From the NCBI GenBank assembly GCA_043803105.1, contig JAZDKJ010000012.1:23337-87336 (forward strand): 64,000 nt of DNA. Reading direction: 5' to 3'. The notes beneath the pieces are model-generated. The model was not told the origin of the DNA, searched no databases, and worked only from the letters and a program-made list of their open reading frames with translations. The position numbers and the translations under genes are program-made. This document shows, one piece after another, positions 3,137 to 28,635 of this stretch; within the stretch, counting starts at the first letter, position 1; every line of letters starts with the position of its first letter. This DNA is from Candidatus Woesearchaeota archaeon (GTDB lineage Archaea; Nanobdellota; Nanobdellia; Woesearchaeales; JAZDKJ01).

Positions 3137-5152
3137 ATGCCTCTTTACAAGAAAGCCTTCAGTTCTGTGATGATGGAGGTTGTTGTCCTTATCCTGGTGG
3201 TAGTTGTCATCCTAGCTTCCGGAAAATGGACTTATTCTATGGCATCCTCTCTGTTTGGCAACAAGCAAGGCACTGTGGAGAGCTTTGAGATTGTCTCAAA
3301 GAGTATGCAGGCTCTTGCCAATAGTCAGACTGTTTTTGCCTCTGACAATGCAAACCTCATGATTTTGCAGGATAGTTATGTGATTGTTGGTTTTGACAAA
3401 ACTGAGCAAAAGTCTGTGAGTTCCTGCGAGAGCCGCGAGGCCCAAAAGCCTCCTGTCTGTGCTGGTAGCGCCTGCATCTGCCTTTTCAAATTTGATGCAC
3501 TTGATAAGCCTGTGCAGTGCACAATCCTCTATAATGTTGACCGGGTCTTCACAATCAATTATGATTCTGATTACAGCAGCCGTTTTAAGGTTCCTGAAGC
3601 CTATAGCTTCAACTCCCTAGGCTCACAAGCATACATTTTCAATGACAACTACAAATCATCTTTTTCCTCCACAATTCAAGGAGTGTCAAATCCTGCAGTT
3701 AGCTATTCGCATCTTTTCCTCTTTGGCAATTGCCCGAATGAGCATATTTCCAGAAGTTTTGCAGCCCATAACTTTTACATTGAGAAGTTTGTCGACGCCA
3801 CGCAGAAGAAGACCTATTTCCTTGTTGCCTATGCTGATGAATTTACCATTGCGCACTCTGAGGAGATAAGAAAGAAGTTCGGCTCAAAGAGTCCTGCCGA
3901 GTACGAAAAGCTGATTTCCGAGCTTCTTGCGTCAAAAAATCCTGAGCAGGCTGTTGCAAAGTTCTCTGAGTTCAAGGCAGCTTATCCGCTCGCAAATCTT
4001 TCAAATGCAACTTACCAAAAGCTTTTGCAGTACCTTCTTCCAAAGACCTCAAAAGAGGAGTTGGCCATAGCCTTGCAGATTGTTGATGATTATCTCAAGT
4101 TCTTTCCTAATGATGACAAGACTCAGGAGATGCTCTATAATCAGGGCTTGTTTAACATGCTTCTTGATGATGTTGATGCAGCTAAGGAGTCATTTGACAA
4201 GGTTATTGAGACTAATGCCAAGTCTGAACTGGCAAAAAAGGCTGAAGACATGCTGGACGCTGTCTCAATCATAAAAGAAGATCCCGGCCTCACAGGCGAG
4301 TCAAGCCAGGCTACAATTAAGAGGTTAACTGAGGAGATTTCATCAGAAAAGGATGATTCCAAGCTCGGCGAGCTCCATTATGGGCTTGGTGTTGCTTACC
4401 TTGTCGCAAATATTAGGTCACGCTCAACCATTTATCCAAGAGATCTTGCAGTAAACGAGTTTGCTACAGTAATCTCAAAATATCCTGTAAGCGAGTATGC
4501 TGATGTTTCTTGCTACAATCTCGGCCTTGTCTACAGCTCTTTGGCTGAACAAAATGAAAAAGACCATCAAAAGGCTTGTGAATATTTCGCTAAAGTTTAC
4601 CAGGATTACCCCTTTGGCAAGTCTGTCTTTAATGAGGACTTGAGCACTCTTGCTGCTGACAAAATCAAAAGGTTTGACTGCAATGTGGACGAGTATGATA
4701 CATTTGATTCTTCTTCATATACAGAACCTGCTCCTTCTGACGTTTCAACTGATGTCTTAGACCCAAAACTTCAAGGCCTCACTCCTGAGACTGTTGAGGA
4801 CGTCAAGAAATTGCAGACTGCATTGAATGCTAAGTTTGTTATTCATGAGGGCTACGCAACCACCGGCCATCTGCCTGGCTCACTTCATTATGTAGGCAAG
4901 GCAGTTGACTTTCACATCACTGGAACAAGCCTAACATATCTCGAGCAGATCGATGCAATGAATCAAGCACTCATTGGTTTAAAAATTGCAGACAACGGCT
5001 TTGGTATCTATCCTGATTGGCGTAATCCTGGCTTTCACTTCGATACCCGTGGCAAGGTTGCAAGATGGGGCTGGCTCAGCAAGCATGAGGTCTCTTATCA
5101 GGCTGCTCTGGATTACGCAAAGGCGCATGCACCAGCAACTGCTGTTGGCTAG
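3137..5152 (+). CDS. membrane-anchored protein with central TPR-like helical repeats and a C-terminal peptidase M15 (YcbK/MepK-like, Peptidase_M15_3) domain
   Basis: C-terminus HEGYATTGHLPGSLHYVGKAVDFH ... NGFGIYPDWRNPGFHFDTRG matches the zinc-binding SxHxxGxAxD and GxGxY...FxHxDxR motifs of M15A/M15_3 peptidases; N-terminus MPLYKKAFSSVMMEVVVLILVVVVIL. Confidence 0.65.
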   Translation: MPLYKKAFSSVMMEVVVLILVVVVILASGKWTYSMASSLFGNKQGTVESFEIVSKSMQALANSQTVFASDNANLMILQDSYVIVGFDKTEQKSVSSCESREAQKPPVCAGSACICLFKFDALDKPVQCTILYNVDRVFTINYDSDYSSRFKVPEAYSFNSLGSQAYIFNDNYKSSFSSTIQGVSNPAVSYSHLFLFGNCPNEHISRSFAAHNFYIEKFVDATQKKTYFLVAYADEFTIAHSEEIRKKFGSKSPAEYEKLISELLASKNPEQAVAKFSEFKAAYPLANLSNATYQKLLQYLLPKTSKEELAIALQIVDDYLKFFPNDDKTQEMLYNQGLFNMLLDDVDAAKESFDKVIETNAKSELAKKAEDMLDAVSIIKEDPGLTGESSQATIKRLTEEISSEKDDSKLGELHYGLGVAYLVANIRSRSTIYPRDLAVNEFATVISKYPVSEYADVSCYNLGLVYSSLAEQNEKDHQKACEYFAKVYQDYPFGKSVFNEDLSTLAADKIKRFDCNVDEYDTFDSSSYTEPAPSDVSTDVLDPKLQGLTPETVEDVKKLQTALNAKFVIHEGYATTGHLPGSLHYVGKAVDFHITGTSLTYLEQIDAMNQALIGLKIADNGFGIYPDWRNPGFHFDTRGKVARWGWLSKHEVSYQAALDYAKAHAPATAVG

Positions 5153-5194: not shown

Positions 5195-6253
5195 ATGAAA
5201 AAAAGAGGTTTTGGTCTTAGAGCCAGTCTTGACCCTACTCACCATCTTTATCTTGTGTTATTTGAGTTGTTTCTGGTTGCAATAGTCTTCATTGCCTTGA
5301 TGTCTTATGTCAAGTCTTTGCAGGAAAATACATTGCTTGAGAAGAGCTATCTTTCAAAAGACCTGGCCTTGCTCTCAACTGCAATCTACTCCAGTCCCGG
5401 TGATGTTTTTTACGTCTACACTCATCCAAAGATTGGCTTGCAGCGCTACAATTTCATTTTCCAGCAGGGCTCTGTAATAGTTTCTGATGCATCTTCCTAC
5501 AAGATTTCTTATCCTTATGGCCTAAGCCCTAAGATAAAGGCTTCTTCAATCAGCATTGACAAGCCGATTGGCATCCTTTTCTCTCTTTCCGATTCTAATC
5601 TTTACATCACTGCCTCAACCCTTGAACAAACCATCTCATGCCCTGATGTGGAAACTAAGGCTTCTGGAGATAGGATTGTTGCTATAGATCCTGGCCATGG
5701 AGTTGACACAAGGCTCTCTAGTCCGACCTCAGCCTCAGGTGCAGGCTCTGTCTTTGGCACTTTAATCGAGCAGGACTTGACCAAAAATATTGGCTCAGCC
5801 CTCTCTTACCAGCTCAATCAGGCCGGTGTTAAAACCATCGTTACTAGTTCAGGTGACAGTTTTGTTTCAATGCAGGAGAGGCTTTCCACTGTTTCCAGGG
5901 ATGATGTTTCGTTGGTCATTAGCCTGCATACAGGCAATGAATTGCCTCCATTCAACGGGATTCGCGCCTTCATCTATTCATCCTCTTCCAAGTCATTGCA
6001 GAGCGAAAAGCTTGCCTGCCTTGTTTTGAAGCAGTTTGCCCTCAAATTTCCAGCGATTACCTCTATTGAGTTGAACAGGCTCGATGCCTCAGCACTTGAA
6101 GGTATCGATAATCCAATGCTTGTTTTGTATGGCGATAAGCCTTCTGTGCTGATCGAGATAGGTAATCTCCAGCTTGAATCAGGCTTGTTGAAAGAACAAT
6201 CACCTTCGATTGCAGAGCCTATTGTGAAGGCTATCCAGAGTTACTATGAATAA
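5195..6253 (+). CDS. N-acetylmuramoyl-L-alanine amidase (Amidase_3 family) domain protein with N-terminal membrane anchor
   Basis: IVAIDPGHGVDTR ... VSLVISLHTGN ... GIRAFIYS ... PSVLIEIGNLQLESG follow the Amidase_3 pattern (DxGHGG...DLFxSIHAN...E.Y...VLVELGFxSN). Confidence 0.7.
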   Translation: MKKRGFGLRASLDPTHHLYLVLFELFLVAIVFIALMSYVKSLQENTLLEKSYLSKDLALLSTAIYSSPGDVFYVYTHPKIGLQRYNFIFQQGSVIVSDASSYKISYPYGLSPKIKASSISIDKPIGILFSLSDSNLYITASTLEQTISCPDVETKASGDRIVAIDPGHGVDTRLSSPTSASGAGSVFGTLIEQDLTKNIGSALSYQLNQAGVKTIVTSSGDSFVSMQERLSTVSRDDVSLVISLHTGNELPPFNGIRAFIYSSSSKSLQSEKLACLVLKQFALKFPAITSIELNRLDASALEGIDNPMLVLYGDKPSVLIEIGNLQLESGLLKEQSPSIAEPIVKAIQSYYE

Positions 6254-6881
6254 GAAGAGTGAGATTTCAGATTACATGATTGCCTTTGTTCCTAGGTTTC
6301 TCTTTCTTGTTGTGATGCTTGTCAGCATTTATTTTCTTGTGCACACATATGTAAAGACTGAAGTTGACACCTTTGATGCAGAGTCTGCTCTGTTTGTTGA
6401 CCGCCTGATTTACTCAAGGGATGGGTTATGCCAGATGTCCCAGGGCCAGGTTACTCCAGGAATTATTGATGCTTCAAGGCTTCAATACCTTGAATCCAAC
6501 CTGACCAAAAATATTGTCTATCCTGATTCACGGCACATTGCTGCAAAAGTTTCGATTAAGGATATGGGCTCTGCTGAGCTTTTTTCTTTTTATTACAACA
6601 AGGATTGGTTTGATAGGTGGATTGTGCTCTCAAAGTACTCAGGCAGCAGCGCATCCACTGTTTCCAGGAGGAGCCTTTACTTCCTGTTGAAAGGAAAATC
6701 TGAGCTTGATAAGCTCTTGTTGAAGAACCAGATTTCCGGGCTTCAGTCCGACCCGTTGTTTGCCTCAAGCCAAGAGCTTGTGCCATTGCAGAAGCAGCTT
6801 GATGAGCTTTCCAAAAAGCCTAAAGATGATGCTATCATTCCAGTTTGGCTGGAAATTATTGTGGTGATGCCAAATAGTTAA
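6246..6881 (+). CDS. hypothetical membrane-anchored protein (MNKKS-EISDYMIAFVPRFLFLVVMLV)
   Basis: ORF track; pilin-like N-terminus; overlaps the preceding gene by 8 nt. Confidence 0.5.
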   Translation: MNKKSEISDYMIAFVPRFLFLVVMLVSIYFLVHTYVKTEVDTFDAESALFVDRLIYSRDGLCQMSQGQVTPGIIDASRLQYLESNLTKNIVYPDSRHIAAKVSIKDMGSAELFSFYYNKDWFDRWIVLSKYSGSSASTVSRRSLYFLLKGKSELDKLLLKNQISGLQSDPLFASSQELVPLQKQLDELSKKPKDDAIIPVWLEIIVVMPNS

Positions 6882-7394
6882 GAGAGCTCTTCTTTCACCA
6901 AATCTTCTTGATTTTTATGCATACATAGCTTTCTGCGTAGTCCTGATCATTTTTTTCCTCCTGTTTTCAATAAGTCCGACCAAATCCATTGAAAGCATTT
7001 CCTCAAAACAGATTTCAACAGATTCTGGCCTTATCCTGATTAATCTGCTGAAGACTCCTGCCTCTCAGAGTAGCAGCGTCTCTGATATTCTGCTCACCGC
7101 GTCAGATTCTGATGATTTTAAGTCATTTGCATCATACGCAAAGCCTGTTATTGAGCAATTTGTTGCGTCTAACTTCGATGATTGCTGCTATGAGTTATCG
7201 GTTGTTAAGGCAGGCTCAGCGATTTTTGTGCTGACCACGGAAAATTGTGAGCTTTCAAAATTAAATGAGGTCTCTGCGTCAGTCAGTGTTCCGCCGAAAG
7301 ACCCGAAAAAGGCAGGCCTTGATGTTGTGCTAACCCTTTACAGGTCTTACCTTGTTGGCGGAAACATTGGTGCTACAAGGATGCAGAGTTCAGT

Positions 7395-9572
7395 TTGCAA
7401 GTACAAAAAATGAAAAAAGCCTTTGTTTTCAACATCAGCTTGGTTTTCATAACTACTATTGTGTTAATGTCCATCTTCCTTGTCCTCCAGTCCAAGAGAA
7501 GCTCTCTTGAGCTTGACAATCTTGGTTCAAGGCCTCTTGACCTTATCAGTTCTTATGAGTCAGGGGAGTCTATTAGGTTTTTCATAGAGCAGTCCTTAAG
7601 GAATAGCTTTGGACAGTCTGTTTTTGATCTGGCTTCAAACGGTGGTTTTGTAGAGTATAGCAAGTGCGGCTCTTATCTTGGTTATCAGCTCTGGCAGCCA
7701 GAATGTTTTCCAAATCTTGATTCAGAGTTCAATAAGCGTTTGCAGCTTGTTTTTGGAGACTTCTTGCTCACTTACAAGCAGGAGTTGCCTCTCTCGTATT
7801 CTTCAGCCATCGAATCTAAAGACCCCCTCAAGGTTTCTGCCTTCCCTAACACGCCAATCACCATTGATGTCTTCACTAAGAAGCTCACCTCAGTGAAGCC
7901 TGGTTTTTGGGCTAAGCTTGTTGCAAAAATATCTGGCGCAACTTTGCCTGAGCCTTCTGATTTGAGCAAAGCCCCCAAGTTTGTTTCAAAGAATAGCAAA
8001 GGAGTAATGAACAATATCTATATTTTATACAGCAGCTCTCTTTCAAGGTACACAATTGATTATCCTCAGGTGTCAAAGTCATTGATCGCAGGCGTGATTG
8101 CTCAGGAGTCTAAAGGAGACCCATTTGCTATTGGCACTCTTGGCACCAGTGCAGGCCTGACCCAATTTGAGCTTGCAACAGCCAAAGGTTTTCCACAGGT
8201 TTTCAAGAAATTGACTGATTGTGCGTGTTCCGGCTCTAAGTGTAAGCTTAGTGCCTTGTGCAACCCTTCTAATGATGACAGGTTAAATCCAGATATTTCA
8301 ATAAAGGGTTCTTTTGTTTACTATGCATCGCTATTAAATAGCTTTTCAAAGTTCTCTTCAGCCACAGAGTTTGCAGTTGCTTCTTACAATGGAGGAGAGT
8401 CTGTCATCAGGAAGGCCATTTCATCAACAGGCTTGTCCAATCCTTCATGGCCACAGGTTTCTGCTGCTTTGCGGCCTGAGCTCATTACATATATATCATC
8501 TGAGTCTGCAAGGCTTCGTAAAGTCGAGATTATAAGGAACTATGTTAAGGCAGTAATGGCCTATAAATCAGAATATGAGTTGCTTGACCAGGCTCAAAAG
8601 CAGCAGGCTTACGAAGAGAAAAAAAAGGACCTTGCTAAGACTCATGATTGCTGTTTCTGCTCGCAAAAGTGCGGTTTTGATTGCTCTCTTGTTCCTGTCC
8701 CAGAATCTCAGGCCTGTGGCCCCCTTTCTATTGGCATTGGTGTTAATTGTGATGTATCTTCTTGTTCCCTTCCGCAGACCTCCACTTCAACATACCAATT
8801 TAGGCCTGTAGTGGCTGCCTCGTCAAATTATAATCTGACAACCTACCAGCGCATCCAATACCTTCTTACCTCAAATAACGGACTCCTTGCCAATCTTGCA
8901 ACCTGTTCTTCTGCCAAGCCTTTGGCAGTTTGCCTCGCTCCCTTGTCATCAGTTATGTCAGAAAAAGACCCTAGCCTAAAGTGGGGTTTTGACCTTGATT
9001 GTGATTCAAATGCAGAGATGGTTTTTGACAGGTTTGCTGAAAATCTTCTTTTGTGTTCAATGTCCGCTACAGATAATTGTGTATGTAATCTTGCAATGGA
9101 CATTGGTAAGCAGATGGTCCCTGACGGCACTTTTGAAATCAAGCTCTCAAATTCTGGCTCAACCACTGTTCTGCAGTCAGACAAGGTTAAGGACTTCACT
9201 GTACCTGTTTTATCAAGCATTTTCCTGAGGTCCATGACATCATCTGAAAAAGCAGATTTCAAATATGACATAAACTACAGGAAGGGTGTTTTCTACAAGG
9301 CAAGCCTTAACACTGCAAATTATGTTTCTGTTTTGGGCAAAAATGTGAGGATTGTGAAGCAGGGAAAGGCCTTGACATTTGTTGATGATGAGGTTTTTGC
9401 TGCATCATTTGCCTCAATGCCCTCTTGCACTGTTCAGAAGGATACTCTACGAGTTTGCGTCTCAAGGCTTATTTCAGGCAAGCCTGAGCAGGTTTATGCA
9501 TTCAACCCATTGACAGGCAAGGTCGAGCCTCGTAACCTGGTGTATAGGTTTGCGATTAAAGCCTCTGTTTGA
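7395..9572 (+). CDS. large secreted protein with lytic transglycosylase (SLT/GH23 lysozyme-like) domain
   Basis: VIAQESKGDPFAIGTLGTSAGLTQFELATAKGF and VASYNGGESVIRKAI match SLT catalytic motifs (E-S ... GLMQ ... AYNAG); N-terminus MKKAFVFNISLVFITTIVLMSIFLVL. Confidence 0.65.
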   Translation: MQVQKMKKAFVFNISLVFITTIVLMSIFLVLQSKRSSLELDNLGSRPLDLISSYESGESIRFFIEQSLRNSFGQSVFDLASNGGFVEYSKCGSYLGYQLWQPECFPNLDSEFNKRLQLVFGDFLLTYKQELPLSYSSAIESKDPLKVSAFPNTPITIDVFTKKLTSVKPGFWAKLVAKISGATLPEPSDLSKAPKFVSKNSKGVMNNIYILYSSSLSRYTIDYPQVSKSLIAGVIAQESKGDPFAIGTLGTSAGLTQFELATAKGFPQVFKKLTDCACSGSKCKLSALCNPSNDDRLNPDISIKGSFVYYASLLNSFSKFSSATEFAVASYNGGESVIRKAISSTGLSNPSWPQVSAALRPELITYISSESARLRKVEIIRNYVKAVMAYKSEYELLDQAQKQQAYEEKKKDLAKTHDCCFCSQKCGFDCSLVPVPESQACGPLSIGIGVNCDVSSCSLPQTSTSTYQFRPVVAASSNYNLTTYQRIQYLLTSNNGLLANLATCSSAKPLAVCLAPLSSVMSEKDPSLKWGFDLDCDSNAEMVFDRFAENLLLCSMSATDNCVCNLAMDIGKQMVPDGTFEIKLSNSGSTTVLQSDKVKDFTVPVLSSIFLRSMTSSEKADFKYDINYRKGVFYKASLNTANYVSVLGKNVRIVKQGKALTFVDDEVFAASFASMPSCTVQKDTLRVCVSRLISGKPEQVYAFNPLTGKVEPRNLVYRFAIKASV

Positions 9573-13934: not shown

Positions 13935-14465
13935 ATGAGGTTGTTCATAGCTCTGGACTTTGTTGAGCATAAAGATTATTTTATTAAGCTACAAGAGGAG
14001 TTCAGTAAGCCTGGAAGATACAGCCTCCCCAAATCTTTTCATTTGACCCTGAAATTTCTTGGCGAGGTGCCGGATTCAAACATTTCCCAAATCAAGGATG
14101 CTCTTTCCAAGGTTTCATTCAAGCCCTTTAGCCTAAGATTGAATAGGTTGGGTGTTTTTCCGAGCCTTAGTTATGTTCGTGTTCTTTGGGTTGATGTCCT
14201 TCCCTTGGAAGAGGTTTCAACCCTTCAAAGGTCAATCGATGCTGCTTTGCGTGGATGGTTTGCTCCTGACAATAGGTTTCATCCTCATATTACACTAGCA
14301 AGGGTTAAGTCCATTGCTGACAAACAGAAATTTGATGAGCTGCTCAATAATCAGGTTGAGGTAAAGACTGTTGTCATTGAATCTTTTAACCTGATTAGAA
14401 GCGTTCTGTCTTCGAAAGGTCCTTCCTATGAGTTGGTTGATGGTTTTCGAGCGCAAGATATTTAA
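13935..14465 (+). CDS. thpR: RNA 2',3'-cyclic phosphodiesterase (ThpR/LigT, 2H family)
   Basis: Two H-x-T/S-x motifs: HLTLKFLG and HITLARV. Confidence 0.8.
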   Translation: MRLFIALDFVEHKDYFIKLQEEFSKPGRYSLPKSFHLTLKFLGEVPDSNISQIKDALSKVSFKPFSLRLNRLGVFPSLSYVRVLWVDVLPLEEVSTLQRSIDAALRGWFAPDNRFHPHITLARVKSIADKQKFDELLNNQVEVKTVVIESFNLIRSVLSSKGPSYELVDGFRAQDI

Positions 14466-14489
14466 GCGCAGTTTCTCTAAACTTAATAA

Positions 14490-16040
14490 ATGGTTTCAAA
14501 AAGGGGTGATTCTTACACTGTTCTTTATGGTGTTCTTGTTGTTTTGGTTGGCTTGATTGTGATTTTTGGCTTTCGTTCGATTGTTCAGTTGAACCAGAGT
14601 GCTCAGGATGTAAAGGTTTTGCAGTTCATTACAAGTTTGGATGAGGATGCACAGACTATGTCTTCTAAGGTTGGCTCTCTAACTCAATCAACCTACTCTC
14701 TTCCTATGGTTGTTAACGAGGTCTGTTTTGCTGATTTACAGACTTCACCTGAAAGTATTGGTAGTGCTCTTATCGGGAAATACTCTTTCATTAAACGCTC
14801 TGTCGAATCTGGTTCTGGTAAGAATGTTTTTTTGGTTGGTGACAAGTTTTTTGATTCGTATTCTGTTCCCAGCCTGCATTTAGATGATGGAGTCATGTTT
14901 GCTTGCCTGAATCCTGAGGCTAAGGTTTTGTCTCTTGACCTTAAGGGTTCTGCTAAAGGTGCTGTGCTTGTTAAGGGTTGGAGGGTTGAGCGCACTCTCT
15001 CTACCTCTGCGACTACTGATATTGTTTCTGCTGATAGTTCAGCATTAATGTCTGTTCCTGCCGGCGCTTCTGCCTCTCCAACACTTTCTGTTGAGGTTAT
15101 CTCTCATCCAGGCTACGATTTCTTGAGTGAGGCCTATAAGTTTGGTCCATCAGGAACAGTTTTTGATCCGGCTGCAACCATTTCAATCTCCTTCAATCCC
15201 GCTGAGATAACAGTCTGTCCGCCTGGCAGGGCACAATTTGTCTTCAAGCTGTACGATGACAATAATCAATTCATTGAGGACCTTCAGTATGATTCTGTTG
15301 ATTGTGTTAGTCATGTTATGACTTTCAGGCTTGACCATTTCAGTTGGGGAGGCATTGCTGCTGTCCAGGCGACACAATATACGCTCAACGTTGTTATTAA
15401 CAATGAGGGGACTGTAATAGCCAAGGTTGGTGGAAATATAGTTCCTTTACCGCTTACTGCTGACTTCGGAGCTGTGGTTCACCTTGTGGCTGGTCCGAAT
15501 TTTGTTGGGTGGAGTACCATTCCAGCTGTTGCGCCTTTTAGTTCAGCTAACACTCTCTATCAAACGTTGACTGCGACAGGTACGATTTACGCCAATTTCC
15601 GTGCTAGTGGTCTTACGGGCAAATGGGCTAGTGTTTTAGCCAATGGATACAAGTGCAATGTCAAAAACACGTACATCGGAATTGGCTATCACGAGAGGGG
15701 AATACCGGGGGCCATAGATGTTGCCCCCAATCAAATAACCTACTTCATTATTGATCCAACCGGATACACTGGACTTGATTATAGCGGCAGAAACATTGTC
15801 GTTAGGGCACTTGACTACGATCAAAGTAATACAGGCACGTCAAAAGATACGGTATCCAAAGCCAGATTGATTGTAGTGGATCGCAATGGCAATGAAATTG
15901 TAATTTATAATCTTGGTGGAGAAAATAACAATTTTGTTGGCACTGTTCAATGTGATGCCACCACCAAAGATAGGATTTATATTGTTGAGCACAAGCAGGG
16001 AGATTTAAGAGGAGCTCAGATATCCTCCTGGTGGCCGTAA
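14490..16040 (+). CDS. surface protein paralog 1 (class III-like signal KRG-DSYTVLYGVLVVLVGLIVIF; conserved N-module, InlB-B-repeat-like middle module, variable C-terminus ending GDLRGAQISSWWP)
   Basis: ORF; near-identical 5' 280 bp to paralog 2; preceded by TATA-like ATATTTAAG about 26 bp upstream of the ATG. Confidence 0.7.
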   Translation: MVSKRGDSYTVLYGVLVVLVGLIVIFGFRSIVQLNQSAQDVKVLQFITSLDEDAQTMSSKVGSLTQSTYSLPMVVNEVCFADLQTSPESIGSALIGKYSFIKRSVESGSGKNVFLVGDKFFDSYSVPSLHLDDGVMFACLNPEAKVLSLDLKGSAKGAVLVKGWRVERTLSTSATTDIVSADSSALMSVPAGASASPTLSVEVISHPGYDFLSEAYKFGPSGTVFDPAATISISFNPAEITVCPPGRAQFVFKLYDDNNQFIEDLQYDSVDCVSHVMTFRLDHFSWGGIAAVQATQYTLNVVINNEGTVIAKVGGNIVPLPLTADFGAVVHLVAGPNFVGWSTIPAVAPFSSANTLYQTLTATGTIYANFRASGLTGKWASVLANGYKCNVKNTYIGIGYHERGIPGAIDVAPNQITYFIIDPTGYTGLDYSGRNIVVRALDYDQSNTGTSKDTVSKARLIVVDRNGNEIVIYNLGGENNNFVGTVQCDATTKDRIYIVEHKQGDLRGAQISSWWP

Positions 16041-16185
16041 AAAGAACGGCGGACAGCAGTTGACCAATTAAAATTAACGAGGGCAGATTTCCCAAACACA
16101 ATTTTTTACTTTTTCTGGAATGTTATATTCGAAGTTCTGTCCTCGGCAGGGCCTTCGTATGAGTTAATCGAAGGTTTTCGAGCGG

Positions 16186-16200
16186 AAGATATTTAAACGC
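16186..16200 (+). promoter_or_regulatory. BRE/TATA-like element (GATATTTAAAC) about 26 bp upstream of the paralog-2 ATG, implying a leaderless transcript; equivalent elements at about 14456, 18037 and 19758
   Basis: Conserved in all four repeat units. Confidence 0.4.
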
Positions 16201-16220: not shown

Positions 16221-17855
16221 ATGGTTTCAAAAAGGGGTGATTCTTACACTGTTCTTTATTGTGCTGTTGTTGTTTTGGTTGGCTTGATTGTGATTTTTGG
16301 CTTTCGTTCGATTGTTCAGTTGAACCAGAGTGCTCAGGATGTAAAGGTTTTGCAGTTCATTACAAGTTTGGATGAGGATGCACAGACTATGTCTGCTAAG
16401 CTTGGCGCTCTAATGCAATCAACCTACTCTCTTCCTGGTGTGGTTAAGGAAGTTTGTTTTGCTGATTTGTTGGCTTCTCCGGAATCTATTGGAAGCGTTG
16501 ATATTGGGAATTATCCTTTCATCAAGCGTTCTGTCGAATCTGGCTCTGGCAAGAATGTCTTCTTGGTTGGTGACAAGTTTTTTGGTTCGTATTCTGTTCC
16601 TAGCCTTAATTTGGGTGATGGTGTTATGTTTGCTTGCCTGAATGCTGAAGGCAAGGTTTTGTCTGTTGCTTTGAGGGATTCTGCCAAAGGCACTGTGCTT
16701 GTTAAGGGTTGGAGGGTTGAGCGCAATTTATCCTCCTCTGCAAATACTGATATTGTCTCTGCCGATGGATCTGCAACCTTATCTGTTCTTGCTGGCTCCT
16801 CTGCCTCTCCCACCCTCTCTATTGAGGTTATCCCGCATCCAGGCTACAATTTCTTGAGTGAGGCTTACAGGTTCGGCCCTTCTGGGACTGTTTTCACAGA
16901 CCATGTCATTCTGGCTGTAAATTTTGACCCGACCATCTGTCCACCTGGTCCAGATGAGTATGTTTTCAGGCTTTTTGATGACAACAACCAGTTTGTAGAA
17001 GATATCAAATATGATTCTGTTGATTGTGTTAATCATGTTATGACTTTCAAGCTTGACCATTTCAGTTGGGGTGCAATTGCTGCTGTTCAGGAGGCACAAT
17101 ACACTTTCAACGTTGTCATTAACAATGGAGGGACTGTTATGGCCACGGTTGGTGGAAATATAGTCCCTTTACCGCTTACTGCTGACTTCGGAACTGTGGT
17201 TCACCTTGTGGCTGGTCCGAATTTTGTTGGGTGGAGTACCATTCCAGCTGGTGCGCCTTTTAGTTCAGCTAATACTTTCTATCAGACGTTGACTGCGACA
17301 GGTACGATTTACGCCAATTTCCGTGCTAGTCAAACTGTTCAGCCGCAGAAAGGCGAGTGGTATGGCATAATGCAGTCTGCCTACAAGATGGACCAGGATG
17401 TGCAGATAAGGGCTCCTGATGGCACGTGGGCGGCTGCCGGCCAGGGCTTTGGATATGGCTGCCACCCTACTCCGGGAATATGCTCTCCTGACATGGTCTG
17501 GATATATCCCGGTCAGACTTTGTACTTCCTTATAGACATCAATTATTCAAAATCCTGGTCTTGGAATCCAGACTATTGGAAATACTGCGAGGGCAACTAT
17601 GTCACGGTAAATATTTATGATTATAACCAGCGTCACACTGCAGGCTACTATGGCGTCGATTTGATTGCGGTTGACGTTTACGGAAGCGAAATTCCCCTTC
17701 CATACAAGCCTTACTTTGGAAGCGCTGGGAATGGCGTATTCCAGGGGTATATCGGAACATCACAGCACTCCTCCGGAAGGCTGTACATCCTTAAAATCCA
17801 TTCTTTGCTCAATGAACAGGCGCTGCTGAGGGTCAACTGGAGGTGCGGGAGATAA
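16221..17855 (+). CDS. surface protein paralog 2 (same N- and middle modules; distinct C-terminal domain ending LRVNWRCGR)
   Basis: ORF; sequence comparison with 14490..16040. Confidence 0.7.
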   Translation: MVSKRGDSYTVLYCAVVVLVGLIVIFGFRSIVQLNQSAQDVKVLQFITSLDEDAQTMSAKLGALMQSTYSLPGVVKEVCFADLLASPESIGSVDIGNYPFIKRSVESGSGKNVFLVGDKFFGSYSVPSLNLGDGVMFACLNAEGKVLSVALRDSAKGTVLVKGWRVERNLSSSANTDIVSADGSATLSVLAGSSASPTLSIEVIPHPGYNFLSEAYRFGPSGTVFTDHVILAVNFDPTICPPGPDEYVFRLFDDNNQFVEDIKYDSVDCVNHVMTFKLDHFSWGAIAAVQEAQYTFNVVINNGGTVMATVGGNIVPLPLTADFGTVVHLVAGPNFVGWSTIPAGAPFSSANTFYQTLTATGTIYANFRASQTVQPQKGEWYGIMQSAYKMDQDVQIRAPDGTWAAAGQGFGYGCHPTPGICSPDMVWIYPGQTLYFLIDINYSKSWSWNPDYWKYCEGNYVTVNIYDYNQRHTAGYYGVDLIAVDVYGSEIPLPYKPYFGSAGNGVFQGYIGTSQHSSGRLYILKIHSLLNEQALLRVNWRCGR

Positions 17856-18065
17856 ATATCTCCCGGGACAAATATCTTCGATGAAATTTGCGTTTGGTTT
17901 TATTATTGGCAATTTATGCCTCATTTTTCTCTCGAATTCTGCACTGGCTCAGTCCCTTTCTGGCATATTATATTCGAAGTTCTGTCCTCGGCAGGGCCTT
18001 CGTATGAGTTAATCGAAGGTTTTCGAGCGCAAGATATTTAAACGCAATTTCTCCCAACTTAATAA

Positions 18066-19586
18066 ATGGTTTCAAAAAGTGGTGATTCTCATATTCTTCT
18101 TTACGGCGCCCTTGTTGTTGTAGTTGGTTTGATAGTTATTGTTGGTTTTCGTTCGATTGTTCAGTTGAACCAGAGTGCTCAGGATGCAGAGGTTCTGCAG
18201 TTCATAACAAGTTTGGATCAAGATGCACAAACTTTGTCTGCTAAGCTTGGCTCTTTAACGCAATCAACCTACTCTCTTCCTGGTGCGGTCAAGGAAGTTT
18301 GTTTTGCCGATCTAAAGGCCTCTCGAGAATCTATTGGTGGGGTTGCTATTAGGAATTATCCTTTTATTGAGCGTTCTGTTGATTCTGGTGCTGACAAGAA
18401 TGTTTTTTTGGTTGGTGATAATTTCTTTGAATCGTATTCTGTTGCCAGCTTAAACTTAGATGACGGTGTTATGTTCGCCTGCATAAATACCGAAGGTAAG
18501 GTTTTACCTCTTGCCTTAAAAGGCTCTACAAAGGGTACTGTGCTTGTTAAGGATTGGAGGGTTGAGCGTGTTTTGGCTTCTTCTGCGACTACTGATATTG
18601 TTTCTGCTGATGGTTCTGCAACACTGTCTGTTCCTGCTGGTGCGTCTGTCTCTCCCACACTTTCTGTTGAGGTTATCTCTCATCCAGGCTACGATTTCTT
18701 GAGTGAGGCCTATAAGTTTGGTCCATCAGGAACAGTTTTTGATCCGGCTGCAACCCTTTCAATCTCCTTCAATCCCGCTGAGATAACAGTCTGTCCGCCT
18801 GATAGGGCACAATTTGTCTTCAAGCTGTACGATGACAATAATCAATTCATTGAGGACCTTCATTATGATTCTGTTGATTGTGTGAATCATGTTATGGCTT
18901 TTAGGCTTGACCATTTTAGTTGGGGTGGGATTGCTGCTGTCCAGCCTGTGCAGGTTGTTGTTGCTGTGGAAAATTTGCCTAGCGGGGGGAGTGTTACAGC
19001 TAATGGGGTGGCCTGTCCAGCGACGTTATCGGTTCAACCAAACACCGTGGTGTATCTGGTTGCTGCTCCGGCGACTGCTTTTAGTGGGTGGAGTATCGGG
19101 TCAAGCCCAGTGAGAGCAACTGCGAGTTATTATTATACTGCAACCTCAACAGTTATGATCACTGCTAGGTTTGCCCCTAGGGTCGTCTCAGGCCATGGAA
19201 GCGGGACATTCGCCGATCCGTATAAACTAGACACGCTTACGTCTACTGGCTATTCGTATTATACCTCCAGTCCCAAGGCAGAATTCGCCTTGCCTTCCGG
19301 CAAGATATATTATGAGGTTGACCCGTCAGCATATAGTAGTAATAAGAATTTCCAGTTTGTCCTAAAAGGATACAATAACCCTTTCATTAATGGTGTAACA
19401 TTAACTGTTAGGAACAAAGCCACTGGCCAGGATATTTTAACAGAACAATATGTTTCCTCTGGCTGGACTGCAATATATGATAGGACAGATTCGTCTGCCT
19501 TTCCGTTTAGCACATACAAGTTTATTATGGGCATCAGCAACACCGGACCATCTGAACTGGCAGCTGTCTGGTGGTGGGCATACTAA
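18066..19586 (+). CDS. surface protein paralog 3 (conserved N-module; middle module replaced by a divergent B-repeat-like module; distinct C-terminus ending AAVWWWAY)
   Basis: ORF; sequence comparison. Confidence 0.7.
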   Translation: MVSKSGDSHILLYGALVVVVGLIVIVGFRSIVQLNQSAQDAEVLQFITSLDQDAQTLSAKLGSLTQSTYSLPGAVKEVCFADLKASRESIGGVAIRNYPFIERSVDSGADKNVFLVGDNFFESYSVASLNLDDGVMFACINTEGKVLPLALKGSTKGTVLVKDWRVERVLASSATTDIVSADGSATLSVPAGASVSPTLSVEVISHPGYDFLSEAYKFGPSGTVFDPAATLSISFNPAEITVCPPDRAQFVFKLYDDNNQFIEDLHYDSVDCVNHVMAFRLDHFSWGGIAAVQPVQVVVAVENLPSGGSVTANGVACPATLSVQPNTVVYLVAAPATAFSGWSIGSSPVRATASYYYTATSTVMITARFAPRVVSGHGSGTFADPYKLDTLTSTGYSYYTSSPKAEFALPSGKIYYEVDPSAYSSNKNFQFVLKGYNNPFINGVTLTVRNKATGQDILTEQYVSSGWTAIYDRTDSSAFPFSTYKFIMGISNTGPSELAAVWWWAY

Positions 19587-19787
19587 TGAAAAAGCGGGAA
19601 AGGCAAAACGGGATGCTTTTCTGGTAGTCCTCCGTTTTTTTGATATGGCGCATTCTCCGGAAGCAGTTTTTCTTGCTTGTTAATCAAGTCGAACAGTTTA
19701 GCGAGTTCTTCATCAAGGCCCTTCATATGATTTGATTGATAGTTTTCCGACGAAAGATATTTAAGCGCAATTTCTCCCAATCATTGT

Positions 19788-21359
19788 ATGACATTAAAAA
19801 GGGGCGATTCTCATACTGTTTTTTATGGTGCTCTTGTTGTTGTGGTTGGCTTGATTGTGATTTTTGGCTTTCGTTCAATTGCTCAGATGAGCCGGAGTGC
19901 TCAGGATGCAAAGGTTCTCCAGTTCATTACAAGTTTGGATGAGGATGCACAGACTATGTCTTCTAAGGTTGGCTCTCTAACTCAATCAACCTACTCTCTT
20001 CCCGGTGCTGTTAACGAAGTTTGTTTTGTTGATTTGCATGCTTCACCTGAAAGTATTGGTAGTGCTCTTATCGGGAAATACCCTTTTATTGAGCGTTCTG
20101 TTGATTCTGGTTCTGGCAAGAATGTTTTTCTGTTAGGTGACAAGTTTTTGGAATCATATTCTATTCCCAACCTCAACCTGGACGATAATATTATGTTCGC
20201 TTGCGTGAATCCTGAGGCTAAGGTTTTATCTCTTGACCTTAAGGGTTCTGCTAAAGGTGCTGTGCTTGTTAAGGATTGGAGGGTTGAGCGCGCTTTGGCT
20301 TCTTTGGCAACTACTGATATTGTCTCTGCCGATGGATCTGCAACCTTATCTGTTCCTGCTGGCTCCTCTGCCTCTCCCATGCTCTCTATTGAGGTCATTG
20401 CTCATCCGGGTCAGGATTTTTTGAGTGAGGCGTACAGGTTTGGTCCTTCTGGTGCTGTTTTCAGCCAGCCCGTCACCCTTTCAGTCAGTTTTGACTCAGC
20501 TGTCTGCCCGCCAGCTAGGGATGAGTATATTTTCAAGCTTTTTGACGATAACAATCAGCTTATTGAAGACTTGCAGTATGATTCTGTTGATTGTGTGAAT
20601 CATGTTATGACTTTCAGGCTTGATCATTTTAGTTGGGGAGGCATTGCTGCTGTCCAGACTCCGGTTTCTGCCGCTCAGGTGGCGATAAACACTCTCAACG
20701 TTGTCATTAACAATGGTGGGGTTGTTATGGCCGCGGTTGGTGGAAATGCAGTTGATTTGCCGTACACTGGTGACTTCGGAACTGTGGTTCACCTTGTGGC
20801 TGGTCCAAGTTTTGTTGGGTGGAGTAACAGTCCAGCTGGTGCGCCTTTTAGTTCAGCTAACTCTCTCTATCAGACGTTGACTTCGACAGGTACGATTTAT
20901 GCCAATTTCCGTGCTAGTGGTCTTACGGGCACGTGGGCTAGTGTCTTGGCTACTGGCTATAAAGACAATACCCGCTTTACCAGGGGCGGCATTCCGATAG
21001 GTGGATGGGGATATTATTTAGATGCGACCCCATCTCAAGTCCCTGTTGCGGCGGGTGGAACGATATACTTTGTCATTGATCCCAATGCATACACTGGACT
21101 GGACTGGACAGGGAGAGCGATTCGTGTCCGCGCAGTTGATTATGACCAGACCAATTCCGGTTCGTCCATCGAGAAGCAGACAAACGCCCGTTTGATTACT
21201 GTAGACAGAGATGGTAATGAGTTATCTGCCCAAACTTTGGCAGGTGATAGGTATCAGTTTTCAGGGACAGTCTATTACACCAGACCTAGCAAGATTTACA
21301 TCATCGAAGTGACACAGGGGGATTTGAGAGGAGCTTATTTTTCTTCTTGGTGGCCGTAA
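19788..21359 (+). CDS. surface protein paralog 4 (C-terminus related to paralog 1, ending GDLRGAYFSSWWP)
   Basis: ORF; shares the 3' flank (AAAGAACGGCGGACAGCAGTTGAC...) with paralog 1. Confidence 0.7.
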   Translation: MTLKRGDSHTVFYGALVVVVGLIVIFGFRSIAQMSRSAQDAKVLQFITSLDEDAQTMSSKVGSLTQSTYSLPGAVNEVCFVDLHASPESIGSALIGKYPFIERSVDSGSGKNVFLLGDKFLESYSIPNLNLDDNIMFACVNPEAKVLSLDLKGSAKGAVLVKDWRVERALASLATTDIVSADGSATLSVPAGSSASPMLSIEVIAHPGQDFLSEAYRFGPSGAVFSQPVTLSVSFDSAVCPPARDEYIFKLFDDNNQLIEDLQYDSVDCVNHVMTFRLDHFSWGGIAAVQTPVSAAQVAINTLNVVINNGGVVMAAVGGNAVDLPYTGDFGTVVHLVAGPSFVGWSNSPAGAPFSSANSLYQTLTSTGTIYANFRASGLTGTWASVLATGYKDNTRFTRGGIPIGGWGYYLDATPSQVPVAAGGTIYFVIDPNAYTGLDWTGRAIRVRAVDYDQTNSGSSIEKQTNARLITVDRDGNELSAQTLAGDRYQFSGTVYYTRPSKIYIIEVTQGDLRGAYFSSWWP

Positions 21360-21680
21360 AAAGAACGGCGGACAGCAGTTGACAAATTAAAATTAACGAG
21401 GGCAGATTTCCCAAACACAATTTTTTACCATTTCTGGAAATTTATATTCGAAGTTCTGTCCTCAAAAGGTCCTTTAATTCACTGTACTGATTCAGAGCCA
21501 GACCCTTTTTGTTTAGCATTAGCCAACCGGTGATAACTGAAGTATTTTGGATTATGATTGGTATAGATTGACGTGCACATTGAACAGTTAACTTTTTAAA
21601 CCTCCTGATATTCTCCGTTTTCATTACCGAAGCTGCTGAGGTGAAAAACAAGCAGGTCACTTCTGGTTTGTTCGGTAAGG

Positions 21681-23582: not shown

Positions 23583-24503
23583 ATGCAAAAAAGGGGTCAG
23601 ATAACCATTATTCTGGTTCTAGTCGTTTTCATCGTCATCATCCTCTCTATTGTCATTTACCTGAATTCAGTCAAGAGTCAGAGGGGCATTGAGACCTCAA
23701 CCTACAAGGCAGTTGGCTCGCCGCTTGATGCAACTCCCATAAAGTTATATCTGGATTCTGTGTTCGCCCAGACTGTGGAGCACTCCCTTGCCACAATCGG
23801 AGTCAATGGTGGCTACATCAGCATTAACGTTAATGAATCATATAATGAGACAGGCTTCCCAGATTATGTCATCTACGAAGGTAGCAAGATTCCTTACTAC
23901 ACTAGGGATTGGGATTTGAGTGGTAGCGTGACACCGAATGAGGTACGTTTTCTTCCGCTTCAGAATATCACTGACAGGTTGAGGCGTTATGTGCTTTTTT
24001 GGGTTGGAAACCAGTCCAATTTCTCTTTTTTCAGGGAGCACAGCTACATCGTTTATGCACCAAATATTTCCTTTCAGGCAATCTCCTATAATCTTACCAA
24101 GGCAAGCCTTAGCTATACAAAAGCTAGACTCAATCTTTCAGTAAACGCGAATGATGAGGATGTTGCCTTTATGCTTTCTTACCCTATTATAGTCTTAAAA
24201 CGGGAGGGCTCTACCGAACTGGTTGACTTCACAGACATTGTTCCTTATCCTTTGAAGGATGTTTACCAGAATATCAGCTTCCTGTTGAACGAGATAGTTT
24301 CGGAACAACCCCTACCTTACGACCTTGCAGCTAATTGCAACAAGTACACTGCTGTTAATGACATAAGGCTCACTGACCTTGGGGCAAGCGGGCTCATTGT
24401 TAACTTTTCCAGGATCATATCTCCGGATTACAATTACACCTTTAGGTTTGGGCTCCGGGATGTTTCAGTTACAGGCGAGTGCAGAAGCATCCGCACATCC
24501 TAA
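23583..24503 (+). CDS. secreted, sequon-rich (N-x-S/T) probable glycoprotein with archaeal pilin-like signal MQKRG-QITIILVLVVFIVIIL
   Basis: KRG-Q class III-like motif; at least 8 N-x-S/T sequons (NVNESYNETGF, NQSNFSF, NLTK, NLSV, NISF, NFSR, NYTF). Confidence 0.55.
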   Translation: MQKRGQITIILVLVVFIVIILSIVIYLNSVKSQRGIETSTYKAVGSPLDATPIKLYLDSVFAQTVEHSLATIGVNGGYISINVNESYNETGFPDYVIYEGSKIPYYTRDWDLSGSVTPNEVRFLPLQNITDRLRRYVLFWVGNQSNFSFFREHSYIVYAPNISFQAISYNLTKASLSYTKARLNLSVNANDEDVAFMLSYPIIVLKREGSTELVDFTDIVPYPLKDVYQNISFLLNEIVSEQPLPYDLAANCNKYTAVNDIRLTDLGASGLIVNFSRIISPDYNYTFRFGLRDVSVTGECRSIRTS

Positions 24504-27404: not shown

Positions 27405-28635
27405 ATGATAAGATATATACTTTGGGGTGTCTCATTTATCACCCTTTATGTTTCTCTGGTCTGGCTTAGCTTCATGTACTTGAATCCATTTCAGCACAAG
27501 CGACTTTTTTCATATCCCAGCATTACTGTTGTAATACCTGCTTATAATGAAGAGCGCACTGTTGTCGATACAATTAAATCTGTTGCTTCTGCCTCTTATC
27601 CAAAAGGAAAGCTTAGTCTGGTTGTGGTTAATGATGGCAGCACTGATCATACTTCAGCTGTTGCCAAAGAATATATCCGGTCCGCCAGGATTAAGAACGC
27701 AATTGTCATAGATAAACCACAATCGGGCAAGGCAGCCGCACTTAATACTGCCCTCAAAAGCACTTCGACTGAATTGTTTGCCTGCGTGGATGCAGATTCT
27801 TTGATTGACAAACATGCCTTGCTGCAATTAATGCACCACTTCGAAGACCCAAAGAATGCTGCTGTGATAACTGCCTTGAAGGTGTATAAGCCCAAGAAGC
27901 TCTTGGAAAAGGTACAGCATTTTGAATACCTGTTGGGCATTATTACCCGGAAGATTCGTTCCTCAATCAATACCCTGGCAATGACCCCCTGGCGTTTTGA
28001 GCGTTTACAGAACTAATTTACTACAAGATCTCGGGGGTTTTGATGAGCATAATATTACCGAGGATTTTGAGATTGCCATGCGACTGAAGTTTCATGGTTA
28101 TAACATTCAGCTCGAGACTAAAAGCATCACGTACACTAATGTACCCGACACGTTCCGCGCGCTAAAGAGGCAACGCGTTAGATGGTTCAGGGGCTATATC
28201 TTCAACCACATAAAATATAAGAGTATGTTCTTTGATCGGAATAATAAGTTCATGGGGTATTTCCAGCTACCCTTGAACATCATCTCTATTGGTATACTCC
28301 TCCTCAGCACAACACTCATAGGGTATGGGACCTTTACGACTGTGAGGGAGCTCATCCAACGGGCTCTCTTGATTAAGGGGTATATCCCCAGCCTGTTTTA
28401 CATACCTCCCCTAAAAGAGATAATCCTTGGCCATGACATTCAGATCATGTTTCCAATATATATAGGCGCAATTGGAGGTTTTTACCTTTTCTATGTTGCT
28501 CACAAGGAGACAAACGAAAAGTTTAAGCACCCTCTCTCGATTTGGCTTTATTTCACAATCTTTCCCTTGCTTAATTTTTATTATTGGGTTTGCTCACTGG
28601 TGCAGGAGGTCTTTAGGTCCAAGAGAAAATGGTGA
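27405..28635 (+). pseudogene. GT2 family processive glycosyltransferase (DAD and Q-R-V-R-W motifs) interrupted by a +1 frameshift in a C5 run at 27985-27989
   Basis: Two ORFs (27405..28016, 27997..28635) whose conceptual fusion after removing one C reads ...TLAMTPGVLSVYRTNLLQDLGGFDE..., a canonical GT2 sequence; VVIPAYNEE, CVDADS, QRVRWFRG. Confidence 0.6.

Follow-up and report, generated by a model that had tools for sequence, protein, structure and literature searches.

Four tandem woesearchaeal genes for candidate surface adhesins with a pilin-like N-terminus, a probable ZU5-type cleavage site and diverged tips

ZU5 domains are known to cut themselves in proteins of animal cell death and of the inflammasome, and have been predicted to do so in bacterial toxins. 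Archaea of the DPANN group, Woesearchaeota included, are thought to live attached to other cells; we know of almost no molecules that make this contact. The locus considered here lies in a stretch of 64,000 nucleotides (nt), hereafter the window (contig JAZDKJ010000012.1, positions 23,337 to 87,336 of the forward strand, assembly GCA_043803105.1), from a Candidatus Woesearchaeota metagenome-assembled genome (MAG). Four paralogous open reading frames (ORFs), here called c1 to c4, lie head to tail on its plus strand, with spacers of 180-210 nt. Each encodes, in order, a pilin-like N-terminus, a disulfide-containing beta head, a ZU5-type domain that ends in H-F-S, one Flg_new_2 spacer and a variable beta-sandwich tip. 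The interpretation preferred here, at a probability of roughly 0.6, is that the four are variable adhesins, carried on a pilin-like, self-cleaving scaffold at the surface of a DPANN archaeon; cleavage and binding are what we infer.

The closest described cleavage sites are those of CARD8 and NLRP1, which are cut at SF|S, and of PIDD and Nup98, which are cut at HF|S (PMC3210808). In these proteins the ZU5-like domain has the motif at its C-terminal end, ahead of a long strand. Cleavage depends on the buried Phe and on the Ser at +1, which is the nucleophile, and little on the residue at -2 (PMC3210808). ZU5 autopeptidases have also been predicted in bacterial polymorphic toxins and in large surface proteins (PMC3482391).

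In c1, the ZU5-like domain occupies residues 173-291 (15006-15362; coordinates are those of the window, and all features of the array are on the plus strand). The AlphaFold2 (AF2) model has a predicted local distance difference test (pLDDT) score of 88-96 over residues 176-291, the sandwich itself. When the c1 model was compared with the PDB by Foldseek, the sole matches of probability 1.00 were to ankyrin ZU5 domains: 3ud1 (chain A, E = 6e-5), 3ud2, 3kbu_D (TM-score on the target, TMt, 0.57), 3f59_B (TMt 0.60) and 4d8o. In a set of 1.84 billion representatives, a profile built from the four copies matched 664 proteins at E <= 1e-3. Among the best 150 of these, with lengths from 150 to 2741 amino acids (aa), nearly all matches fall on the N-terminal module (N-module): many homologues of 150-200 aa align to positions ~8-155, and those of 276 to 2741 aa align up to ~290 and then run into unrelated sequence. 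Of Pfam families, ZU5 (PF00791) alone recurs when 35 homologous N-modules are scanned, with matches in nine of them (best E = 3.1e-5). One homologue, the bacterial-type lipoprotein P0088, has a ZU5 match of 22.3 bits against a gathering threshold of 21, followed by THFS and then by Flg_new_2.

The string L-D-H-F-S-W-G is common to all four copies. The predicted autoproteolytic site F|S is found at H283-F284-S285 of c1 (15336-15344), at 17058-17066 in c2, at 18912-18920 in c3 and at 20625-20633 in c4. In the c1 model the last two strands of the ZU5-like domain (276-283 and 286-291) are joined by a turn that holds the motif, and all variable sequence is downstream of the motif. A survey of this motif covered 53 homologues that span the HFS position, with cargo defined as at least 60 downstream residues. 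S, T or C stands at +1 in 37 of the 39 homologues that carry cargo (GFS, SFS, HFS, DFS, HFT and HFC all occur), and F at -1 in 33; of the 14 without cargo, 12 have no nucleophile there, their chains stopping at the F or beside it (e.g. ...DGFI*, ...DAI*). Over all 53, the association of the +1 nucleophile with cargo has a Fisher p of 2.8e-8. A +1 position limited to S, T and C, and kept only where there is cargo, is what a working autoproteolytic site predicts; the ZU5-type domain with its HF|S is probably a self-cutting hinge. In other members of the family the cargo that follows the motif always consists of extracellular binding modules (PKD, cohesin, CARDB, Laminin_G_3 and Ig-like domains in long homologues), which supports an extracellular binding role for the cargo.

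The short homologues have features of their own. Eight of them (P0020, P0021, P0023, P0024, P0029, P0053, P0154 and P0155; 274-307 aa) consist of the pilin-like head and the ZU5-like domain only, and terminate exactly at the position of the motif Phe (...GFI*, ...DAI*). At 6788-7657 of locus L001, a short homologue is followed by the gene for a 745-aa Cys-rich protein with its own MLKRGR and hydrophobic N-terminus. At the other extreme, P0008 (2255 aa) joins a pilin-ZU5 module with SFS to a C-terminal Hint module, and so has two autoprocessing domains, an arrangement that recalls bacterial polymorphic toxins.

Upstream of the ZU5-like domain, the proteins resemble pilins. The typical homologue begins M-x-KRGQ-[ILV]-S-x-E-x-x-x-Y followed by a hydrophobic stretch; as far as motifs tell, this is the prepilin-type (class III) signal peptide of archaea. 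EppA-type substrates are marked by Gln at +1 and by Q-x-S-x-E (Pfam Class_IIIsignal/DUF361). The window copies read MVSKRG|DSYTVLYGVLVVLVGLIVIFGF, that is, basic residues, a Gly and then a hydrophobic stretch of ~22 residues that opens a helix of ~50; in c1 this class-III-signal-like N-terminus (MVSKRG|DS and hydrophobic stretch) takes up residues 1-30. The c1 AF2 model (mean pLDDT 80.5; 88-97 over residues 11-290) has a single long helix at 8-59, a beta head within residues 60-172 (modelled at 64-169, pLDDT 87-97) and the second beta domain at 176-291. In this prediction the long N-terminal helix is packed on the beta-sheet head, as in type IV pilins. Two cysteines, C79 and C139, are invariant in the homologue alignment, and the beta head is widespread among small archaeal pilin-like proteins. 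The preliminary description of the locus, made from the sequence alone, had spoken of a conserved anchor module; the shared N-terminal part is real, but its nature, a pilin-like helix and head followed by a ZU5-type domain, had been left undescribed.

Close relatives of the array are scarce. A scan of GTDB species representatives gave one match, at 4103-4576 of RFII01000043.1 (Candidatus Woesearchaeota archaeon isolate J072), whose protein is 31% identical to residues 1-161 and has the pilin-like head only. Metagenome scans found no related array, and a word-indexed search with c1 returned the four paralogues only. Two other ORFs of the window, at 23583-24503 and 615-1472, have class-III-signal-like N-termini (MQKRGQITIILVLVVF... 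and MKKAELKLIVILVLMLV...); they have no Pfam match and are unrelated to the four paralogues.

Downstream of the motif comes a middle module of ~78 aa, residues 294-372 in c1 (15369-15605), with counterparts at 17091-17327 in c2 and 20658-20915 in c4, and a divergent one at 18945-19178 in c3. The preliminary description had likened a segment at 15300-15610 to the divergent InlB B-repeat, which it took for a beta-sandwich. That interval corresponds to c1 residues 271-374 and does hold the string FSWGGIAAVQ...ANFRAS, with F284 beginning at nt 15339 and the module ending at 15605; the initial FSWGGIAAVQ was wrongly put in the middle module, however, as it is the cleavage motif plus the last strand of the preceding domain. 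The variant string given for copy 3, VQPVQVVVAVENLPSGG...ITARFAP, is found at 18939-19178. The Pfam search that had been proposed as a check matched Flg_new_2 (PF18998) in c1 (13.8 bits), c2 (15.5) and c4 (12.9), at E = 0.017-0.11 and over profile positions 4-71 of 73; the c3 module has no Pfam Flg_new_2 match. Stronger evidence comes through homologues. The four-protein profile matches P0047 (2319 aa) at E = 1.1e-17, with nine stretches falling on positions 292-371, and P0047 carries 14 Flg_new_2 repeats (Pfam E = 1.6e-139). In P0088, the middle module aligns to the stretch that Pfam assigns, significantly, to Flg_new_2. When the four middle modules were aligned by hhalign with eleven repeats from P0047 and P0088, the probability was 96.9% (E = 1.3e-10). 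Membership of the middle module in the divergent InlB B-repeat family (Flg_new_2) is confirmed by these profile comparisons. The fold is another matter: the InlB B-repeat is a helix-less beta-grasp and not an Ig-like beta-sandwich (PMC8900821), and the all-beta AF2 model of the c1 module (pLDDT 89-96) may be read as the former rather than the latter, but it gave no structural match to InlB.

The tips follow directly. That of c1 (residues 373-516, 15606-16037, 144 aa, C-terminus SSWWP) and that of c4 (20916-21356) are of one type, the c1/c4 type; c2 has a type of its own (17328-17852, 175 aa), and the c3 tip (19179-19583, 135 aa) is the most divergent. Tip motifs include IYF-IDP-AYTG, LITVDR-GNE and the terminal SSWWP. 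No tip sequence has a Pfam match or a PHROGs family. A second AF2 model, of c1 292-516 with a richer alignment (mean pLDDT 81; tip 60-91), predicts an all-beta sandwich for the tip. Its Foldseek matches include the PPC domain 5sv5 and the ColG collagen-binding domain 1nqj_B (probability ~1.0, E = 8e-3 to 1e-2, TMt 0.52-0.55) and, at weak E-values, CBM61 (a carbohydrate-binding module, CBM), the receptor-binding part of iota toxin Ib and phage tail proteins of BFVD.

The only homologues that a search with the tip profile found are small proteins whose N-termini are unrelated. P0012, P0172 and P0173 have c1/c4-type tips and end in SSWWP or SAWWP; P0174 is of the c2 type. The c1 tip is 65% identical to that of P0012, the c4 tip 65% identical to that of P0173, with which it shares an indel, and the c2 tip 54% identical to that of P0174. 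Among the paralogues, c1 and c4 are 55% identical to each other and 25% identical to c2; each of the three is therefore nearer to a foreign protein than to its paralogues.

P0012 is encoded by a tailed phage, on a contig of 64-70 kb called viral by IMG/VR (IMGVR_UViG_3300020171_000025; ENA ERZ27247124 k141_817690). Its genes include a head-maturation protease, a holin, an SLT endolysin, an HNH endonuclease and a giant DarB-like protein, the last a distant relative of proteins from phages of Pseudomonas, Vibrio and Ochrobactrum; the G+C content is 44.3%, as against 43.7% in the archaeal window. P0012 itself (L004 6001-6564, 187 aa) is a short N-terminus, a Pro-rich linker and the tip domain, and its gene lies between that of the 2510-aa DarB-like/ART polyvalent protein and that of the head-maturation protease. 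P0173 (GCA_041643315.1, JBGGGV010000817.1, 4088-4744) is on a phage-like contig syntenic with the P0012 phage contig. The order there is giant protein, 75-aa ORF, 60-aa ORF, P0173, Trypsin_2 protease, SLT; P0173 has a C2H2-like Cys/His stretch ahead of the tip. P0174 (GCA_041643395.1, 118-918) is a lipoprotein-like protein of 266 aa on a contig of 25.7% G+C; its gene adjoins that of an 839-aa Laminin_G_3 protein, in a very low-GC organism. No match to the tip came out of a tblastn search of 50,697 GenBank phages, and metagenome scans for the tip found just the P0012 phage contig already known. We infer that the tip contacts a ligand, from its predicted PPC, collagen-binding or CBM-like fold and its occurrence in phage proteins.

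Several of these observations weigh against the adhesin interpretation in one part or another. At the N-terminus, the window copies have KRG-D and not KRG-Q, a two-residue deletion, and Tyr or His where the homologues have Glu; most homologues show the Q-x-S-x-E pattern and the window copies do not, so that it is uncertain whether a prepilin peptidase would process them and whether they would enter a filament. Among the 30 larger ORFs scanned in the 64-kb window, none was found to encode a pilus ATPase, a platform protein or a prepilin peptidase. The Flg_new_2 scores are below the gathering threshold (23.6 bits), and an InlB B-repeat structure is absent from the top Foldseek matches of the c1 292-516 model. 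The fold matches of the tip are weak in E-value (>= 4.7e-4), and the tip tree is a neighbour-joining tree of ~140 residues without bootstrap support. For the ZU5-like domain, the window copies have no Pfam ZU5 match at E <= 10, the profile match to solved ankyrin ZU5 sequences is marginal (E = 0.8-1.4), and the structures matched are ankyrin ZU5 domains, in which no self-cleavage takes place.

The ankyrin matches and the want of a Pfam ZU5 match also speak for the most serious alternative, that the proteins are the same modular surface proteins with a ZU5-like domain that is non-catalytic, as in ankyrins and UNC5; the chain would stay intact, and HFS and the strand after it would merely close the sandwich. 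It can further be said for this alternative that the residue at -2 is variable and that the homologue alignment has no invariant catalytic His or Glu. The residue at -2 is dispensable in CARD8 and Nup98 too, however (PMC3210808). Moreover, a structural role does not predict a +1 position restricted to S, T and C, with HFC and HFT among the variants, or a loss of the nucleophile exactly in the cargo-less proteins, and we consider the alternative unlikely, if worth keeping in view. No UPA subdomain was found after the cleavage site: past the strand 286-291 the chain enters Flg_new_2, with no UPA or death-fold match. Scans of whole proteins and modules against Pfam and NCBIfam gave, beyond the weak Flg_new_2 matches, just noise (ACP, L25, DUF7550). 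Profiles of the four proteins, the middle modules, the repeats and the homologue N-modules gave nothing significant against the sequences of solved structures.

How the four genes came to differ is best seen module by module, in a codon alignment of the four copies (c1 numbering) from which identities, dN/dS (nonsynonymous to synonymous divergence) and sliding windows were computed. Over residues 1-293, nt identity is 79-86% in all pairs, with dN/dS of 0.16-0.29 and dS of 0.4-0.8. In the middle module (about 294-373), c1, c2 and c4 are 85-93% identical in nt; c3 is 48-50% identical to them in nt and 34-40% in aa. In the tips, synonymous sites are saturated throughout: c1 and c4 are 57% identical in nt (55% in aa), and all other pairs are 20-29% identical in aa. 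The preliminary description had called the proteins modular mosaics, which these identities bear out, and had suggested dN/dS per module as a check; it had also seen in copy 3 a different but related middle module, rightly so, since the c3 module is homologous to that of c1 (BLASTP E = 1e-5). Its description of the tips as cassette-like stands in part. The tips of c1, c2 and c4 are nearest to foreign proteins with unrelated N-termini, as a cassette would be, but they are not unrelated to each other. Because the c2 tip is homologous to the c1 tip (BLASTP E = 1e-5), and the c3 tip is detectably related to the others over its first ~50 residues only (hhalign probability 61%, E = 8e-5; BLASTP gave no match between the c3 tip and the others), the tips are, by these similarities, deeply diverged members of one domain family and not unrelated cassettes.

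Superimposed on this pattern are patches in which particular pairs are 97-99% identical: c1 and c2 over codons 1-45, and c1 and c3 over codons ~195-255, where c1 and c2 are merely ~50% identical. One c1/c3 tract (15081-15179 = 18657-18755) contains 38 consecutive polymorphic sites at which the two are identical (permutation p <= 2e-4). Within the ZU5-like domain, at ~15120-15240 (c1 codons ~210-250) and the corresponding places of the other copies, the sequence is of two types: one is common to c1 and c3 (97-99% identical in nt), the other to c2 and c4 (68-74%), with a length difference of 3 codons. Identity between the types is ~50%.

The array carries a record of its origin. The unit upstream of c1 (14381-14489) consists of the 3' end of a LigT-like gene (13935-14465) and 24 nt, and is repeated 5' of c2, c3 and c4. 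The relics of the LigT 3' end at 16112-16196, 17957-18041 and 19679-19763 (5' of c2, c3 and c4, respectively; they read ...EVLSSAGPSYELIEGFRAEDI*) preserve the last ~21 codons, about 25-110 nt upstream of each copy's ATG. An AT-rich element, AAGATATTTAA, is conserved ~35 nt before every ATG, as is evident from direct repeats and from alignment of the upstream units. The relics are recognizable as duplication scars that mark the boundaries of tandem units. With one in every unit, they demonstrate, as far as sequence can, that the array grew in place by tandem duplication.

The same scars would suit a simpler account, in which ordinary tandem paralogues diverged in place, their C-terminal parts faster under relaxed or diversifying selection, with no exchange between genes or genomes. 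The tips of c1, c2 and c4 and the start of the c3 tip are mutually homologous, as this account expects, and there are no spare cassettes: no silent donor cassettes for the tips were found elsewhere in the 64-kb window. But dS is ~0.4-0.8 in the anchor and saturated in the tips, and faster protein evolution cannot be the cause of synonymous saturation. The noncoding DNA past the stop codons gives the same verdict: the c1 3' flank (16041-16155) has its counterpart in the c4 flank (21360-21474), and the first 60 nt past the stop are 98% identical, whereas the adjoining tip-coding DNA is merely 53-70% identical. The nearest relatives of the tips, finally, are foreign proteins with unrelated N-termini, and c4 and P0173 have an indel in common. 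Divergence in place alone is accordingly improbable. The saturated synonymous divergence of the tips, the moderate dS of the anchors and the conversion tracts together indicate that gene conversion homogenises the anchors and flanks, and that the tips are old lineages, either held distinct by selection or imported via recombination. A diversity-generating retroelement was considered and rejected: the likeness of the c1 and c4 3' ends contains no adenine-specific pair of template and variable repeats, and no reverse transcriptase was seen.

What the tips bind is a separate question from how they vary. They might be nutrient-scavenging proteins of the 'bindosome' type, whose tips capture soluble substrates such as oligosaccharides for uptake, with no role in cell-cell adhesion. 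The tip does resemble carbohydrate-binding modules, and there is an ABC transporter 12 kb downstream; that transporter, however, is of the ABC-2 exporter type and is not adjacent, the tips are unlike the folds of periplasmic substrate-binding proteins, the tip is common to phage proteins, and the cargos of the family are adhesion modules (cohesin, PKD, CARDB and lectin-like domains), all of which makes the proposal highly improbable. A system like the polymorphic toxins, with ZU5 as the releasing peptidase and the variable C-termini as toxins or effectors against competitors or hosts, is scarcely credible: immunity genes are absent (the 180-210-nt spacers have no ORF and contain only the LigT relic and a promoter-like region), and so is any likeness to toxins (the tips match no toxin family in Pfam, NCBIfam or PHROGs); the tips moreover model as binding-type beta-sandwiches and have as their homologues in phages not toxins but small proteins that contain a Pro-rich linker, even though ZU5 autopeptidases do lie on the N-terminal side in bacterial polymorphic toxins, recombinational variability of C-termini is a hallmark of those systems (PMC3482391), and P0008 also bears its C-terminal Hint module.

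If the four proteins are adhesins on a self-cleaving scaffold, they would most likely work as follows: the protein would be held by its N-terminal helix, either in the membrane or in a filament like a pilus; the ZU5 domain would sever its own chain between F and S through an N-to-O acyl shift; the strand after the cut, WGGIAA, would remain docked in the ZU5 sandwich; spacer and tip would then be held non-covalently, and could be shed or pulled off; the tip would attach to a partner cell through a ligand on its surface, probably a glycan or a protein. A cell could in this way display several binding specificities upon one conserved scaffold.

A bolder version supposes that the pilin-head-ZU5 scaffold is a widespread archaeal breakaway joint, self-cleaved and non-covalent, for exchangeable binding modules, and that the tips are receptor-binding domains traded with bacteriophages, because archaeon and phage would dock on the same bacterial cell surface. 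By analogy, such a joint would be like those of the GAIN-domain adhesion receptors and of the NLRP1/CARD8 FIIND, but extracellular and prokaryotic. The equal G+C (44%) of the tip-bearing phage contigs and the window would fit such trading, as would two genes for peptidoglycan-degrading enzymes 5-9 kb upstream of the array; taken as a whole, this remains a long shot. The two genes encode an N-acetylmuramoyl-L-alanine amidase (5195-6253; Amidase_3, E = 3e-18) and a membrane-anchored protein of 725 aa with an SLT lytic transglycosylase domain (7395-9572; E = 2e-11). Such enzymes hint that the organism may interact with bacteria. The archaeal SLT was compared with the SLT of the P0012 contig, and no close kinship was found.

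The significance of the locus lies in its supply of concrete candidates for DPANN cell contact, four co-located proteins with a common anchor and differing tips. A testable rule of wider reach comes with them, namely that pilin-like anchors of archaea are linked to variable cargo via a ZU5 domain that bears an F|S/T/C site. Should the cleavage be real, ZU5 autoproteolysis would extend to archaeal cell surfaces; if not, the locus remains a clear case of concerted evolution of anchors with maintained diversity of tips. The link between tip and phage points to a movement of binding modules between viruses and the adhesins of cells, and provides a handle for guessing the partner organism.

As for the annotation of the locus, the four ORFs are c1 at 14490-16040 (516 aa), c2 at 16221-17855 (544 aa), c3 at 18066-19586 (506 aa) and c4 at 19788-21359 (523 aa). 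The products are identical to the 'hypothetical proteins' V1837_07270 (c1) to V1837_07285 of the NCBI MAG, on a 182-kb contig. The neighbours of the array are archaeal housekeeping genes: RadA, LigT (Pfam LigT_PEase), ribosomal protein S2 and a RadB-like gene, as well as an OB-fold, RPA-like ORF named by eye. Farther along, two overlapping ORFs (27405-28016 and 27997-28635) are the N- and C-terminal halves of a family-2 glycosyltransferase, the product either of a frameshifted or split gene or of an assembly error; they lie within a glycosylation gene cluster (PMT_2/Alg9-like at 31354-32748).

Comparison with known systems can be made part by part. The domain that holds the predicted cleavage site has parallels in PIDD, the FIIND of NLRP1/CARD8, UNC5CL and Nup98, which are alike in the x-F-[S/T/C] at the domain end, the conserved Phe and the variable -2 residue (PMC3210808); the first three would also share the ZU5 beta-sandwich fold, as modelled here. 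In contrast to PIDD and NLRP1/CARD8, the archaeal proteins have no downstream UPA or death-fold; they would be extracellular, with a pilin-like anchor and adhesion modules, and their cleavage is a prediction. The ZU5 domains of bacterial polymorphic toxins are alike in being prokaryotic, secreted, near the N-terminus and upstream of variable modules, and the role proposed for them, cleavage at the base of a surface structure, is alike as well (PMC3482391). Those toxins differ in their Sec signals, their SpvB/RHS and TcdB/TcaC contexts, and their toxin tips and immunity genes; here there is a class-III-signal, pilin-like leader, a B-repeat and small beta-sandwich, no immunity gene, and a DPANN lineage.

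With archaeal minor pilins and adhesins, and with the bindosome proteins of Sulfolobus, the window copies share the basic-Gly-hydrophobic motif, the long alpha-1 helix and a globular binding domain; they deviate from class III signal proteins at +1 and +5. A 2026 survey of archaeal type IV filament systems makes no mention of autoproteolysis, and no description that combines a pilin-like N-terminus with a ZU5 domain was found in the literature searched. The middle module has the pattern YTLNV-I-G-G-V ... V-L-A-P ... F-GW ... A-F in common with the InlB B-repeat or Listeria-Bacteroides repeat (Flg_new_2 PF18998, Flg_new PF09479), and has a like position as a surface-protein spacer, as in internalins and archaeal adhesin-like proteins (PMC9723798). 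It differs in being a single copy and not an array, and in having no counterpart to the Cys pair of the canonical repeats compared. In archaea, Flg_new has been reported from gut methanogens (PMC9723798); the host here is a woesearchaeote. The tips have predicted folds that match 5sv5, 1nqj and 2xon (TM 0.39-0.55 on the target), and so would resemble PPC, clostridial collagen-binding and CBM domains. The terminal position behind a spacer is as in phage receptor-binding tips; relative to the PPC, collagen-binding and CBM families, the tip is without sequence similarity and has conserved motifs of its own.

The variation itself invites comparison with pilE/pilS of Neisseria, in which N-terminal parts are likewise conserved, C-terminal parts variable, and copies joined by recombination tracts (PMC2188307, PMC4023411). 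The difference is that the window has four complete genes with their own promoter-like regions, with no silent partial cassettes found, and that conversion here homogenises anchors where in Neisseria it diversifies one expression locus. The locus as a whole combines known kinds, namely modular adhesins, class III signal proteins and prokaryotic ZU5 autopeptidases, as far as each can be recognized from its sequence; what appears to be undescribed is the fusion of pilin and ZU5, with covariation of nucleophile and cargo, and the possession of tips in common with phage proteins.

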